64,000 nt of DNA from a phage. The notes beneath the pieces are model-generated. The model searched no databases and was not told the origin of the DNA. It was given only the letters and a program-made list of their open reading frames with translations. Both the position numbers and the translations under genes were made by a program. This document shows positions 55,778-59,551 of this stretch, one piece after another. The DNA is taken from NCBI GenBank assembly GCA_021469345.1, contig GCA_021469345.1_3049.1. One strand, given 5' to 3'. Within the stretch, counting starts at the first letter, position 1. Each line of letters opens with the position of its first letter.

Positions 55778-55954
55778 ATGCCTCTTTATGATTATAAATG
55801 TCAATCCAAAGACTGCGCAAAAGAATACGAAAAAATCAAGAAAATTTCTGAAATGGATACTGATGTATGTCCTGATTGTCATCGGATTGCTATTCGGTTA
55901 GTTTCCGCTCCTAAGCATGTGAATGGTGGTTTTTACGACTTACTTAAAGGGTAA
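55778..55954 (+). CDS. FmdB-type zinc-ribbon small protein
   Basis: 58 aa; MPLYDYKCQSKDC...CPDCH. Confidence 0.45.
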   Translation: MPLYDYKCQSKDCAKEYEKIKKISEMDTDVCPDCHRIAIRLVSAPKHVNGGFYDLLKG

Positions 55955-55956
55955 TT

Positions 55957-56328
55957 ATGTTTAAAATCGGTAAGAAATATCGTATTCGCGAAGGCGAAGA
56001 AAAGAAATATCTAATGTCTGCTATTTATAGGAATGGTTCTATTAATGCTGTAATATCTACAAGCGAATTTATCGTTGAAGATATGAAAGGTAATAATGTT
56101 ACAATGATTAGTACAGCATCTGGAAATGATGGAAAAATTCTTCACAGTTTTCAGAGTAATGTTCTAATTTATGATGAAGAATTTGACCTATTCGAAGAAG
56201 TTACAGAAGATTTTGATTTTGAATGCACCATCACTATGAAATCTGGCGACCCTCTTTCTTTTACAGTTAAAGATGAAAGAAGCCGTTTGAGAATTATTAG
56301 TCTTCTTCAAGCCATTAAATTTAAGTGA
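55957..56328 (+). CDS. hypothetical protein
   Basis: 123-aa ORF. Confidence 0.5.
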   Translation: MFKIGKKYRIREGEEKKYLMSAIYRNGSINAVISTSEFIVEDMKGNNVTMISTASGNDGKILHSFQSNVLIYDEEFDLFEEVTEDFDFECTITMKSGDPLSFTVKDERSRLRIISLLQAIKFK

Positions 56329-56662: not shown

Positions 56663-58213
56663 ATGATTAAGAATGAAATTAAAATTCTGAGCGATATTGA
56701 ACATATCAAAAAGCGTAGCGGCATGTATATTGGCTCTTCTGCTAATGAAATGCATGAGCGCTTTCTGTTTGGTAAATGGGAAAGTGTTCAGTATGTACCT
56801 GGTCTTGTTAAGCTTATTGATGAAATTATCGATAACTCAGTAGATGAAGGTATTCGTACTAAGTTTAAATTCGCAAATAAAATTAATGTTACTATTAAAA
56901 ACAATCAAGTAACAGTTGAAGATAACGGTCGTGGTATTCCACAAGCGATGGTTAAAACACCTACTGGTGAAGAAATTCCTGGCCCTGTTGCTGCATGGAC
57001 TATTCCAAAAGCAGGTGGTAACTTCGGTGATGATAAAGAGCGCGTCACTGGCGGTATGAACGGTGTTGGTTCTAGTTTAACTAATATTTTTTCTGTGATG
57101 TTTGTCGGTGAAACTGGCGACGGTCAAAATAATATTGTAGTTCGTTGTTCAAACGGCATGGAAAATAAATCGTGGGAAGATATTCCTGGAAAATGGAAAG
57201 GAACTCGTGTTACTTTCATTCCTGATTTTATGTCATTTGAAACTAATGAGCTGTCCCAAGTTTATCTTGACATTACACTAGATCGTCTCCAGACACTTGC
57301 TGTTGTTTATCCTGATATTCAATTTACCTTTAATGGTAAAAAGGTTCAGGGCAATTTTAAGAAATATGCACGACAGTATGATGAACATGCTATCGTTCAA
57401 GAACAAGAAAATTGTTCTATTGCGGTTGGTCGTTCACCGGATGGTTTTCGTCAGTTGACGTACGTCAATAACATTCATACTAAGAATGGTGGCCATCACA
57501 TTGACTGTGTTATGGATGATATTTGTGAAGACCTTATTCCACAAATCAAACGCAAGTTCAAAATTGATGTAACTAAAGCGCGTGTTAAAGAATGTTTGAC
57601 TATCGTTATGTTTGTTCGTGATATGAAAAACATGCGATTTGATTCTCAAACTAAAGAGCGTTTGACTTCTCCATTTGGTGAAATCCGTAGTCATATTCAA
57701 CTTGATGCTAAAAAGATTTCACGTGCTATTCTAAATAATGAAGCGATTTTGATGCCGATTATTGAAGCTGCACTAGCTCGTAAATTGGCGGCAGAAAAAG
57801 CAGCAGAAACTAAAGCAGCTAAAAAGGCTTCTAAAGCTAAGGTTCATAAACATATTAAAGCGAATCTTTGCGGTAAAGATGCTGACACTACTCTTTTCTT
57901 GACTGAGGGTGATTCTGCTATCGGATATCTTATTGATGTTCGTGATAAAGAACTTCATGGTGGTTATCCATTACGTGGTAAAGTTCTTAACAGCTGGGGT
58001 ATGTCATATGCTGATATGCTTAAAAACAAAGAACTGTTTGATATTTGCGCAATCACTGGATTAGTTCTCGGTGAAAAGGCGTTTGAAGAAAAAGAAGATG
58101 GCGAGTGGTTTACTTTCGAACTAAATGGCGATACAATTATCGTAAATGAAAATGATGAAGTACAGATTAATGGTAAATGGATAACAGTAGGTGAATTACG
58201 AAAAAATCTATAA
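56663..58213 (+). CDS. 39: DNA topoisomerase II large subunit gp39 (GyrB-like ATPase)
   Basis: 516 aa from ATG 56663; GHKL ATPase motifs; ends where the mobA insertion begins. Confidence 0.95.
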   Translation: MIKNEIKILSDIEHIKKRSGMYIGSSANEMHERFLFGKWESVQYVPGLVKLIDEIIDNSVDEGIRTKFKFANKINVTIKNNQVTVEDNGRGIPQAMVKTPTGEEIPGPVAAWTIPKAGGNFGDDKERVTGGMNGVGSSLTNIFSVMFVGETGDGQNNIVVRCSNGMENKSWEDIPGKWKGTRVTFIPDFMSFETNELSQVYLDITLDRLQTLAVVYPDIQFTFNGKKVQGNFKKYARQYDEHAIVQEQENCSIAVGRSPDGFRQLTYVNNIHTKNGGHHIDCVMDDICEDLIPQIKRKFKIDVTKARVKECLTIVMFVRDMKNMRFDSQTKERLTSPFGEIRSHIQLDAKKISRAILNNEAILMPIIEAALARKLAAEKAAETKAAKKASKAKVHKHIKANLCGKDADTTLFLTEGDSAIGYLIDVRDKELHGGYPLRGKVLNSWGMSYADMLKNKELFDICAITGLVLGEKAFEEKEDGEWFTFELNGDTIIVNENDEVQINGKWITVGELRKNL

Positions 58214-59009
58214 TGACTTAATAGTGCGGGGTAAAACCCGCGTTTCTAAATTTAAGGGTGAAATTCATCATATCCTTCCAAGATCAATGGGAGGTTCTGA
58301 TGATAAAGAAAATTTGGTGAAACTGACTTTTCGTGAACACTTTTTAGCACATTTTCTACTATATAAAATTCATCGTAATCGTGAAATGGCATATGCGATG
58401 AATAGAATGTTAAACACTGAAAAATATTTACGTTCTAGTAAATTATATGAAATTGCTAGAATTTACCATCAAAGAGCAGTATCTGAATGGTCAAAAAACT
58501 TTATGAAAGATAAAGTTTTAATGAGAAGTATTAAATCGGGTAAATGCGCCTTATTAATTAAAGGATCATTTAACTCAAAGGAATGGTGCGGTGTTAATAA
58601 AGGTGTTAAGCTTCCTGGAATTAAAGGCATGACATGCTTTAAAAATGAAAAAGGCGAAGTTTTTCGTCTTCATGTTAATGATCCACGCATTAAAGCTGAA
58701 AAATTAGTTGGTATTGGAAATACTGTTGCTGCTACTGCAAAAGCAGCTGAACTTGAAAAAGCGAAACCATGGTATAATAAATCAGCGACAAATCCAGAGG
58801 CTGTAAAATTAATACCAAATTTATATGAATGGTACGTCACGAAATATGACCCCGATCATTATAAACGAACGGGAGTTGCTAAATGGAAATCAGTTAATAA
58901 TATAACTGTGAATTCAAAATTATTCGGCCGAGCATTTAATGAATTTAAACGCGGTTGGATTCCTGATGAAAAGTTCTATGAGGTGTATAATGAAATTTGT
59001 AAAAATTGA
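58191..59009 (+). CDS. mobA: HNH homing endonuclease MobA
   Basis: 272 aa; GEIHHILPRSMGGSDDKENLVKLTFREHFLAH HNH motif; GTG start overlapping gene 39 end. Confidence 0.8.
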   Translation: MNYEKIYNDLIVRGKTRVSKFKGEIHHILPRSMGGSDDKENLVKLTFREHFLAHFLLYKIHRNREMAYAMNRMLNTEKYLRSSKLYEIARIYHQRAVSEWSKNFMKDKVLMRSIKSGKCALLIKGSFNSKEWCGVNKGVKLPGIKGMTCFKNEKGEVFRLHVNDPRIKAEKLVGIGNTVAATAKAAELEKAKPWYNKSATNPEAVKLIPNLYEWYVTKYDPDHYKRTGVAKWKSVNNITVNSKLFGRAFNEFKRGWIPDEKFYEVYNEICKN

Positions 59010-59522
59010 TTCTTCTAGCGTTGATATGAAAAAATATAAATTGCAGAACAATGTTCGTCGTTCTATTAAATCCTCTTCAATGAACTATGCTAATGTCGCT
59101 ATTATGACAGACGCAGATCACGATGGATAGCCTTCGGGCTATCTATAGAAATACCTCATAATTAAGAGATTATTGGATTAGGTTCTATTTATCCTTCTCT
59201 GCTCGGATTTTTTAGTAATTGGCCAGAATTGTTTGAGCAAGGACGAATTCGCTTTGTCAAAACTCCTGTAATCATCGCTCAGGTCGGTAAAAAACAAGAA
59301 TGGTTTTATACAGTCGCTGAATATGAGAGTGCCAAAGATGCTCTACCTAAACATAGCATCCGTTATATTAAAGGACTTGGCTCTTTGGAAAAATCTGAAT
59401 ATCGTGAGATGATTCAAAATCCAGTATATGATGTTGTTAAACTTCCTGAGAACTGGAAAGAGCTTTTTGAAATGCTCATGGGAGATAACGCTGACCTTCG
59501 TAAAGAATGGATGAGCCAGTAG
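58990..59522 (+). CDS. 60: DNA topoisomerase II subunit gp60, translated with a 50-nt ribosomal bypass (coding gap 59128-59177)
   Basis: MKFVKIDSSS...DADHDG, take-off GGA 59125-59127, UAG, hairpin; landing GGA 59175-59177, then LGSIYPSLLGFF... in frame to stop 59520-59522. Confidence 0.85.
59128..59177 (+). other. translational bypass (hop) element, 50-nt untranslated coding gap
   Basis: GAT GGA TAG CCTTCGGGCTATCTATAG...ATTATT GGA TTA; matching GGA codons 50 nt apart; stem-loop at the take-off site. Confidence 0.85.
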
Positions 59523-59551
59523 TTTACTTTACCACAAGGATGTGGTATAAT
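59522..59551 (+). promoter_or_regulatory. early promoter (GTTTAC-N18-TGGTATAAT)
   Basis: GTTTAC 59522-59527; TATAAT 59546-59551. Confidence 0.6.

Follow-up and report, generated by a model that had tools for sequence, protein, structure and literature searches.

Why is the large subunit of a phage type II topoisomerase encoded in two pieces, with an endonuclease-like ORF lodged at the break? The question is raised by positions 56663-59522 of the window, the whole 64,000-nt stretch of phage DNA that we analyzed. This span corresponds to gene 39, mobA, and gene 60 of a T4-like phage (Tequatrovirus), begins exactly at the ATG of gene 39 and ends exactly at the stop of gene 60, and is 97.9% identical in nucleotide sequence to T4 and 98.4% identical to phage BF15. 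We conclude with high confidence that the region is a T4-type MobA mobile cassette inside the topoisomerase II large-subunit gene of a T4-like phage. This reading is already known, and it matches the interpretations of Bonocora et al. 2011 (PNAS), as represented in bioRxiv 10.1101/2022.08.31.505936 and PMC2988022, and of Manning & Atkins 2022.

The large-subunit gene is interrupted within its Toprim domain

Read in order, the two topoisomerase genes encode the GHKL ATPase, transducer, and Toprim regions of a type IIA GyrB-like subunit (Pfam, NCBIfam). The gene 39 product holds the ATPase, the transducer, and, including the TEGDSA glutamate, the first half of Toprim; its residues 4-475 match gyrB/parE (NCBIfam). 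The reading frame ends at a TAA codon (58211-58213). Gene 60 consists of two segments (58990-59127 and 59178-59522), and once these are joined by bypass, the C-terminal end of uninterrupted gp39 can be aligned to gp60 with no gap. The original prediction placed a 272-aa HNH ORF exactly where the subunit divides into gp39 and gp60, and we see it there, inside the Toprim domain. The split falls between the Toprim glutamate and the DxD motif; in the uninterrupted protein of phage teqhad, where the Toprim match spans residues 410-492 and is weak (E=0.0047), the insertion would come after residue 473.

T2 and T6 had been said to carry an uninterrupted gene 39 at this locus, and each indeed has a single 1818-nt gene, as do RB27 and teqhad. 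Comparison with such genes had been proposed as a way to define the insertion, and it places the inserted element at 58081-59186, in place of 64 nt (Table 1). In ungapped comparison, identity to the unsplit genes is 96.0-97.3% up to 58080 and then drops abruptly, and at the protein level gp39 aligns with its unsplit counterpart only as far as residue 473. On the other side, the first 9 nt of gene 60 after the gap (59178-59186) are element derived, while the remainder is native gene 39 3' sequence, with 98.8-99.4% identity to the final 336 nt of the unsplit genes. Each of the four genes gives the same boundaries, and both the element length and the 64-nt deletion agree with Manning & Atkins (bioRxiv 10.1101/2022.08.31.505936). 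The element also differs from its surroundings in G+C content (32.7% versus 37-38% in the flanks).

Within these boundaries lie a new tail for gp39 (named CTE in Manning & Atkins, bioRxiv 10.1101/2022.08.31.505936), mobA, a new gp60 N-terminus that includes a recoded version of the deleted segment, and a 50-nt bypass gap. The recoded version, homR, has only partial DNA identity to the deleted 64 nt; its equivalent in T2 contains the reported MobA nick site (Bonocora 2011, as relayed in bioRxiv 10.1101/2022.08.31.505936). The suggestion that the endonuclease and the bypass form a self-contained cassette is borne out, in that both lie within a single 1106-nt foreign block with sharp boundaries. 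Published work shows that gp39, gp60, and gp52 together make an active enzyme from which the inserted tails protrude outside the Toprim domain (PMC11461880).

Table 1. Features of the gene 39-mobA-gene 60 locus (positions in the window)
Feature	Position	Strand	Basis
Gene 39, N-terminal part of the topoisomerase II large subunit, 516 aa	56663..58213	+	ORF list; Pfam HATPase_c, DNA_gyraseB; T4T annotation
Gene 39 stretch collinear with unsplit T2, T6, RB27, and teqhad genes, residues 1-473	56663..58080	+	Ungapped comparison
MobA element, 1106 nt, in place of 64 nt of the unsplit gene	58081..59186	+	Comparison with four uninterrupted genes
Element-encoded gp39 C-terminal extension, 43 aa (FEEKEDGEWF...GELRKNL), and stop codon	58082..58213	+	Alignment to unsplit gp39
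mobA, HNH homing endonuclease, 272 aa, GTG start	58191..59009	+	ORF list; PHROG 655; T4T annotation; invariant HNH residues
GAGG Shine-Dalgarno of gene 60	58980-58983	+	Sequence
Gene 60 codons 1-46: 30-aa novel N-terminus, then recoded homologous region	58990..59127	+	Sequence; translation; T4T two-part CDS annotation
homR, the deleted Toprim segment in a recoded version (MNYANVAIMTDADHDG) carried by the element, with DxD metal-binding motif	59080..59127	+	DNA and protein alignments to the deleted 64 nt of teqhad
5' stem-loop upstream of take-off site	59088..59115	+	Predicted; minimum-energy and centroid folds
Take-off stem-loop, 10 bp, UUCG tetraloop; GGA and UAG in 5' arm	59123..59146	+	Predicted; minimum-energy and centroid folds
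Untranslated coding gap, 50 nt	59128..59177	+	Sequence; annotated as bypass region in T4T
Gene 60 codons 47-160 and stop	59178..59522	+	Pfam TOPRIM_C; identity to unsplit genes

The mobA product has the residues of an HNH nuclease

At 34% G+C, a frame would stay open for 272 codons by chance with a probability of about 2e-10, so a chance origin of mobA is excluded. As predicted, its GTG start overlaps the end of gene 39, lying 23 nt before the end of the gene 39 stop codon; mobA thus shares 23 nt with gene 39, in a different frame, and a further 20 nt with gene 60. T4T is annotated with the identical start. Further support for it comes from the N-terminal pattern (M/V)NY..IY..LI, which is kept in another five phage clades; in two of these the start is likewise GTG. 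Our scan for promoters and terminators returned nothing convincing for mobA, and promoter-like sites were fewer than in shuffled sequence.

The HNH motif region comprises MobA residues 23-54 (GEIHHILPRSMGGSDDKENLVKLTFREHFLAH). A lack of HNH catalytic residues would have spoken against an endonuclease, and on alignment H26, H27, N41, H50, and H54 are all present and do not vary among MobA proteins from six clades and the fPS-90 paralogue. Their spacing is that of an HNH nuclease, with a catalytic His in an HH dipeptide, a structural Asn about 14 residues on, and a metal-binding His about 9 further. MobA matches PHROG 655 ("homing endonuclease") at E=3.4e-57. It falls short of the threshold of the very short Pfam HNH profile (PF01844; 20.1 bits versus a gathering value of 21.4, E=7e-4), which matches four of seven MobA homologues at E<0.01 (best, 7.7e-5), and its only NCBIfam match, to IscB HNH, is also subthreshold. 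Searched against solved structures, both MobA by itself and a seven-sequence profile gave only a marginal match (E about 0.008) to 6me0, a group II intron maturase whose HNH domain (EIHHILP...DNLV...H) aligns with the HNH residues of MobA. Since the Pfam score is subthreshold and the structural matches are marginal, we assign the family from the motif, the PHROG match, and biochemistry in the literature.

The remaining C-terminal target-recognition domain of about 160 aa had no Pfam or PDB matches and may be an undescribed DNA-binding fold. Residues 60-112 showed a subthreshold similarity to domain III of baseplate gp6, which we judged to be due to chance. A tblastn search of the window (E<1e-3) found no MobA paralogues beyond mobA.

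The gene 60 gap has the parts of a programmed bypass

The reading frame of gene 60 is restored only by a hop between matched codons that flank a stop-initiated gap, as in gene 60-type bypassing. The take-off GGA (59125-59127) is followed directly by UAG (59128-59130), the landing GGA lies at 59175-59177, and decoding resumes at UUA (59178). A GAG mini-Shine-Dalgarno (59166-59168) sits 6 nt before the landing codon, and the nascent-peptide signal KYKLQNNVRRSIKSSS is present in the novel N-terminus of gp60. Of the two predicted hairpins, the 5' stem-loop has also been described for gene 60 in the literature (bioRxiv 10.1101/2022.08.31.505936), and the take-off hairpin core, UAGCC-UUCG-GGCUA, is found again in the S16, Proteus, and Acinetobacter clades; in the Shewanella clade the loop is UUAG.

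From 59092 on, the bypass region shows no differences from that of T4T. Ribosomes hop the T4 gap, whose sequence is identical to the one in the window, at about 50% efficiency (bioRxiv 10.1101/2022.08.31.505936).

A near-identical element lies in a divergent host gene

The locus and its gene order are shared with the T4 mobA/gene 60 cassette (Huang et al. 1988 Science; Bonocora, Zeng, Abel & Shub 2011 PNAS 108:16351), which forms clade 1 of Manning & Atkins 2022 (bioRxiv 10.1101/2022.08.31.505936), with the same 1106-nt element and the same 64-nt replacement. All of the bypass parts of the T4 cassette are found in the window: the 50-nt gap, the GGA/UAG take-off site, the UUCG hairpin, the GAG mini-Shine-Dalgarno, and the GGA landing site. 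The host genome is nevertheless not T4 itself, given that the 5' part of its gene 39 is 96.3% identical to that of T4T and that it has an extra 123-aa ORF between 39.2 and 39.1, which T4T lacks. As a hint of mosaicism, we note that a gene 39 flank with 96-97% identity to T4 occurs here with a T6-like extra ORF upstream.

We compared the element with its flanks among carriers. The element is 99.55-99.73% identical to those of T4T and BF15 (T4T alone, 99.55%), whereas the left flank, in gene 39, is only 96.3-97.3% identical to those same phages, and the divergence between carriers in this flank equals that of carriers versus noncarriers. Against T4T, the element has five nucleotide differences, none of them inside the 50-nt gap; the one at 59091, in the 5' stem-loop and homR, is at a third codon position and leaves gp60 unaltered. 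On sequence comparison, the history of the element is thus decoupled from that of its flanks, which is a sign of horizontal spread, and recent spread would give such a pattern of an element far more uniform than its surroundings. Whether this phage is a mosaic Tequatrovirus into which recent natural homing brought a MobA cassette that is near-identical (99.6%) and remains active is, in our judgment, an evenly balanced question.

Alternatively, the element could be a frozen relic, with mobA inactive or unexpressed and the split and bypass now inherited only vertically. In favor of this reading, mobA is annotated in the T4 reference record as a defective pseudogene together with ORF 60.1, and Manning & Atkins list laboratory T4, KARL-1, and Aes012 as pseudogenized (bioRxiv 10.1101/2022.08.31.505936). 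In addition, mobA starts with GUG, has a weak ribosome-binding site, and lacks a promoter of its own. In the window, however, mobA is intact across its 272 codons and keeps all of the conserved catalytic residues. Its product is 98.9-99.3% identical to the MobA of T4 and pSe_SNUABM_01 (98.9% for T4, KJ477684), and MobA or its C-terminal domain is 98.9-99.6% identical to that of the intact ORFs in HY01, BF15, T4T, and more than 30 other records. Moreover, the pseudogene form in AF158101 differs by 11 scattered single-base insertions that are absent from the other 13 T4 records listed. Together with the uniformity of the element relative to its flanks, these results make a relic unlikely.

The element is present or absent at one precise site among close relatives

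Among 540 matching records, 42 carry the element and about 500 have the unsplit 1818-nt gene (95-99% identity), so that close relatives differ by its presence or absence at a single precise site. The C-terminal domain specific to MobA occurs in 72 phage records, once per record. For 60 of these as listed, the annotated neighbor is a topoisomerase II subunit gene in all 52 cases in which the annotation names it, and the domain was found at no other locus. We inspected six loci, which come from five non-Tequatrovirus clades (one locus each) and from a second Gelderlandvirus. All are split and have the same ORF order, and the Tequatrovirus carriers T4T and BF15 share this architecture. The original prediction had held that homologous phages with the same ORF and an undivided gene would count against it; the 52 of 52 topoisomerase neighbors and the six of six split loci contain no such case.

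It could also be argued that the HNH protein serves the phage, through competitor exclusion or DNA processing, rather than homing, and that its linkage to the split and bypass is incidental. T-even homing endonucleases do cause marker exclusion of relatives (PMC2988022), and selfish and "useful" roles therefore overlap. We nevertheless regard this explanation as very improbable, because in the records listed the target-specific C-terminal domain is found only beside topoisomerase genes, in six clades, because the endonuclease gene and the bypass have one common pair of insertion boundaries, and because the cassette itself was transferred in published crosses, as summarized in bioRxiv 10.1101/2022.08.31.505936.

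We give still less credence to a split gene as the ancestral form, with the ORF an old resident and the undivided gene 39 found in T2, T6, and others produced by precise deletion and fusion: fusion events do occur, since one has been proposed after endonuclease loss in one Aeromonas clade (bioRxiv 10.1101/2022.08.31.505936), but the unsplit gene is the majority form and is collinear with cellular GyrB/ParE, the split breaks Toprim between its glutamate and DxD motif, the unsplit 64 nt have partial DNA identity to the recoded copy in carriers and could not be regenerated by precise deletion, the identity of the element is discordant with that of its flanks, and six distant clades each have insertion-free close relatives (bioRxiv 10.1101/2022.08.31.505936).

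A model for insertion, expression, and homing of the cassette

Under the mobile-cassette reading, gene 39 would originally have been a continuous 1818-nt gene, in which the element replaced 64 nt within Toprim. The cassette supplies the upstream fragment, gp39, with its 43-aa tail and stop codon, and gives gp60 a ribosome-binding site, a start codon, and its 30-aa novel N-terminus, and it provides the synonymously recoded copy of the deleted Toprim segment. Ribosomes would hop over the gap, taking off at GGA (codon 46) and landing on the matching GGA that lies 50 nt, or one gap length, downstream. Given that mobA has no obvious promoter and probably starts at the GUG before the gene 39 stop, low-level translation from the gene 39 message is likely.

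Published work indicates that MobA makes a single-strand nick in its target and passes to progeny at high frequency when infections are mixed (PMC2988022), and that the cassette moves into T2 and its bypass insert shields it from nicking (Bonocora 2011, as reported in bioRxiv 10.1101/2022.08.31.505936). Following this literature, in a mixed infection MobA would nick the unoccupied gene 39 of a co-infecting relative in the segment equivalent to homR; in T2- or T6-type genes the predicted nick region lies around the segment coding NYHNIAIMTDADHDG. Repair by recombination, with the MobA-carrying genome as template, would then copy in the whole cassette. The literature model explains the immunity of the occupied allele by the 50-nt gap, which lies some 20 nt away from the nick site and breaks the MobA recognition site, and the window sequence fits such resistance: the target segment is both recoded and broken by the gap. 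The same model holds that the insertion is tolerated because bypass and the assembly of gp39, gp60, and gp52 keep the topoisomerase functional.

Related systems and significance

Several known elements share parts of this design. MobE of Aeromonas phage Aeh1, a Mob-type HNH endonuclease that is likewise free-standing, lies within an essential enzyme gene, nrdA; the two halves of nrdA acquire new tails and come back together as an active enzyme (bioRxiv 10.1101/2022.08.31.505936; PMC2988022). The N-terminal HNH domain of MobA is homologous to mobE matches (44-46% identity over about 115 aa), although MobE has another C-terminal DNA-binding domain and another target gene and lacks a translational bypass element. 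I-HmuI and I-HmuII of Bacillus phages are HNH enzymes that, like MobA, nick one strand and still promote homing (PMC2988022). They are intron encoded, so that their host gene is mended by RNA splicing, whereas the MobA target is mended by a protein split and a ribosome hop, and neither enzyme gave a significant sequence match to MobA in our solved-structure searches. Finally, the "byp" elements of Magnusiomyces capitatus mitochondria are short mobile inserts in coding sequence that ribosomes skip (bioRxiv 10.1101/2022.08.31.505936); unlike the MobA cassette, they occur in many copies per genome, have no associated endonuclease, and are unrelated in sequence.

The MobA cassette explains why the T4 topoisomerase has three subunits. 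It also explains the most extreme programmed bypass known, in which a 50-nt gap guards a selfish element from its own nuclease. This account dates from a 2011 publication and was broadened to many phages in 2022, and the window provides one more natural carrier with an intact mobA.

The locus is a split topoisomerase gene carrying mobA

Searching phage genomes with the 2860-nt span that runs from the gene 39 ATG to the gene 60 stop (megablast) returned 540 records. Over the whole span, identity is 98.4% with Escherichia phage BF15 and 97.9% with several records of T4, T4T among them. The T4T annotation names gene 39, mobA (homing endonuclease, H-N-H family), gene 60 as a joined CDS and a "non-coding translational bypass region," and its coordinates agree exactly with those that we read from the window, mobA GTG start included. 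Pfam and NCBIfam assign gp39 to the GyrB/ParE family and find TOPRIM_C in gp60. The original prediction had described a 272-aa ORF with a GTG start and a specific sequence motif, overlapping the gene 39 stop, and the ORF list and raw sequence bear this out: the ORF shares 23 nt with the upstream gene and 20 nt with the downstream gene, each time in another frame. Given the window's base composition, the chance probability of an open frame of 272 codons is ~2e-10, which together with these features confirms the observation as it was first stated.

Features of the mobA locus and its surroundings (window coordinates)
Feature	Position	Strand	Basis or remark
Additional 123-aa ORF	55957-56328	+	between homologues of 39.2 (55778-55954) and 39.1 (56325/56334-56594)
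Terminator-like hairpin TAAAGGCCTTCGGGCCTTTA, CUUCGG loop	56592-56611	+	just past 39.1, ~50 nt ahead of gene 39
Gene 39, 516 codons	56663-58213	+	ORF list and raw sequence
mobA, 272 codons, GTG start, contains GEIHHILPRSMGGSDDKENLVKLTFREHFLAH	58191-59009	+	ORF list and raw sequence
Gene 60, two parts	58990-59127 and 59178-59522	+	ORF list and raw sequence
Predicted 5' stem-loop	59088-59115		minimum-energy and centroid structures
Predicted take-off hairpin, 10 bp, UUCG loop	59123-59146		GGA and UAG in 5' arm; MFE and centroid RNA folds
50-nt gap between gene 60 parts	59128-59177	+	UAG straight after GGA codon; second GGA at end
Promoter-like site TTTACT-17-TATAAT, TG extension	59523-59551	+	directly 3' of gene 60 stop
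rIIA.1, 67 aa	59577-59780	+	downstream of gene 60, as in T4
rIIA, 725 aa	59791-61968	+	downstream of gene 60, as in T4

MobA is an HNH protein tied to the topoisomerase split

MobA matched PHROG 655, "homing endonuclease" (E=3.4e-57), its Pfam HNH match fell just under the curated threshold (20.1 vs 21.4 bits), and its HNH motif could be aligned to the one in a group II intron maturase of solved structure. When full-length MobA was used as a tblastn query, residues 1 to 70-118 proved common to many Mob-type endonucleases at other loci (mobE, mobC, mobD-like), and the C-terminal 162 residues, which presumably form the target-recognition domain, were found in only 72 records, at one place each. 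Among the 60 records listed, a topoisomerase II gene was the neighbor in all 52 that name a neighboring gene; the other 8 are unannotated or name only endonuclease or hypothetical proteins.

We looked at six more loci. Five of them represent one other clade each (Salmonella S16, Proteus Pm5461, Acinetobacter fHyAci03, Shewanella Thanatos-1 and Aeromonas AS-gz), and the sixth is from a second Gelderlandvirus, UoN_LG358_1. All six have the same order: topoisomerase N-part, endonuclease, a ~45-aa ORF ending in ...IAIMTDAD(V/H/P)D(G), TAG, gap and topoisomerase C-part. Fifteen positions are invariant in the protein alignment (M1, N2, Y3, E24, H26, H27, G34, G35, N41, L42, V43, R48, E49, H50 and H54), and the conserved N-terminus confirms the GTG start; other clades use GTG in two cases and ATG in two. 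It had been set beforehand that missing HNH catalytic residues, or the same ORF beside an unsplit gene in homologous phages, would count against the interpretation. Since the residues are present and invariant, and the ORF accompanies the split at every inspected locus and topoisomerase II at every named one, neither point refutes it.

A similarity of MobA residues 60-112 (window 58368-58526) to the C-terminal domain III of baseplate gp6 was sub-threshold (PF21871: E=7e-4, 20 bits vs a 27-bit cut-off; PDB 9f4a: E=0.18) and is probably due to chance.

In Yersinia phage fPS-90 (L005, 1001-3615), gene 39 is uninterrupted, and its stop at 2818 is shared with the start of a different HNH homing endonuclease of 265 aa, which follows directly. 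Over its first 71 aa this protein has 61% identity to MobA; its C-terminal part is unrelated. NUMOD3 was matched in one of the seven sequences of our alignment of MobA homologues and this protein. The fPS-90 gene 39 is strongly diverged over its last ~330 nt, and most of the changes fall on every third base. Judged from sequence, a second Mob-type element seems to make use of the gene 39 3' end here, with its flank recoded or co-converted.

A single 1106-nt block stands in place of 64 nt of the undivided gene

Query coverage reaches 80% or more in only 42 of the 540 records. About 500 match with 61% coverage, in two pieces that span exactly 1818 nt and carry the annotation of one topoisomerase or gyrase B gene. 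We mapped the boundaries base by base against four uninterrupted genes, those of teqhad, RB27, T2 and T6; T2 and T6 do carry an undivided gene 39, as the original prediction had noted. Identity to these genes is 96.0-97.3% as far as 58080 and breaks down at 58081. Read leftward from the 3' end, it stays at 98.8-99.4% to 59187 and breaks down at 59186, which places the foreign block at 58081-59186. It replaces 64 nt (TGAAAACTTGAATTATCATAATATTGCTATTATGACTGATGCTGACCATGATGGTCTAGGAAGC), a net gain of 1042 nt (2860 minus 1818).

In order, the block supplies a 43-aa tail for gp39, mobA and a 30-aa novel N-terminus of gp60. It includes a recoded copy of the deleted segment, homR, which encodes NYANVAIMTDADHDG|LGS where the unsplit gene has NYHNIAIMTDADHDGLGS. 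The DNA of the two differs at many synonymous positions, and the 50-nt gap lies between the G and L codons of this copy. The split divides the Toprim domain, leaving the TEGDSA glutamate with gp39 and placing the DxD motif in gp60. The predicted placement of the ORF at the split point thus holds, with mobA and the bypass gap in one block.

Bypass signals

Window and T4T agree at every base between 59092 and 59186. Beyond the two predicted stem-loops, the window has a GAG 6 nt ahead of the landing GGA and encodes the nascent-peptide signal KYKLQNNVRRSIKSSS. With an overall folding z-score of -1.3, the 131-nt stretch is unremarkable and would not have been picked out on folding alone. The take-off hairpin shares its UUCG tetraloop with the terminator-like hairpin ahead of gene 39.

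In Aeromonas phage AS-gz (L011, 3090-3160), the sequence past the TAG is much shorter and has no CCUUCGGG hairpin. It reads GAC TAG CGGGGTTAATCGAC GGT CAA GGT TCA..., by eye a putative gap of only ~17 nt with a matched GAC codon on either side, which would be a markedly different bypass variant.

Mobility and expression of the element

MobA nicks one target strand and, in mixed infections, shows a high frequency of inheritance (PMC2988022). Bonocora et al. 2011, as cited in bioRxiv 10.1101/2022.08.31.505936, describe transfer to T2 of a cassette comprising the split and the 50-nt insert, a nick site within the segment corresponding to the recoded copy, and nicking that is blocked by the 50-nt insert ~20 nt away and not by recoding alone. 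The promoter-less mobA cassette, with its predicted GUG start and 23-bp overlap (PMC2988022), suggests low-level, re-initiation-type translation. By cryo-EM, the inserted tails hang outside the Toprim domain and activity is little affected (PMC11461880).

The "MobA pseudogene" and "gp60.1" of the AF158101 T4 reference derive from 11 single-base insertions, most of them G, that are scattered within mobA (window-equivalent 58323-58530). None occurs in T4T or the window, and 12 other T4 records among the matches listed agree with the intact form in length (2860 nt). Manning & Atkins call laboratory T4 mobA pseudogenised (bioRxiv 10.1101/2022.08.31.505936); judged by its sequence, the AF158101 pattern resembles old sequencing errors more than genuine decay.

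Across the element, the window differs from T4T at 5 of 1106 positions (99.55% identity) and from BF15 at 3 (99.73%). In the 1418 nt of gene 39 next to it there are 52 (96.3%) and 39 differences (97.3%), respectively, as many as against cassette-free phages. G+C is lower in the element (32.7% vs 37-38%). The T4 cassette of clade 1 (Manning & Atkins, bioRxiv 10.1101/2022.08.31.505936) has the same 1106 nt, 64 deleted nt, 43-aa C-terminal extension and 9 nt of element past the gap. The finding is real, its original interpretation correct, and both already known; at most, the locus is a new example of a natural carrier for an element already published. The additional 123-aa ORF is absent from T4T and BF15 and is a 372-nt gene in T6, RB27 and teqhad, so the same element sits in different genomic backgrounds, and the window phage is a mosaic Tequatrovirus, not T4 itself.
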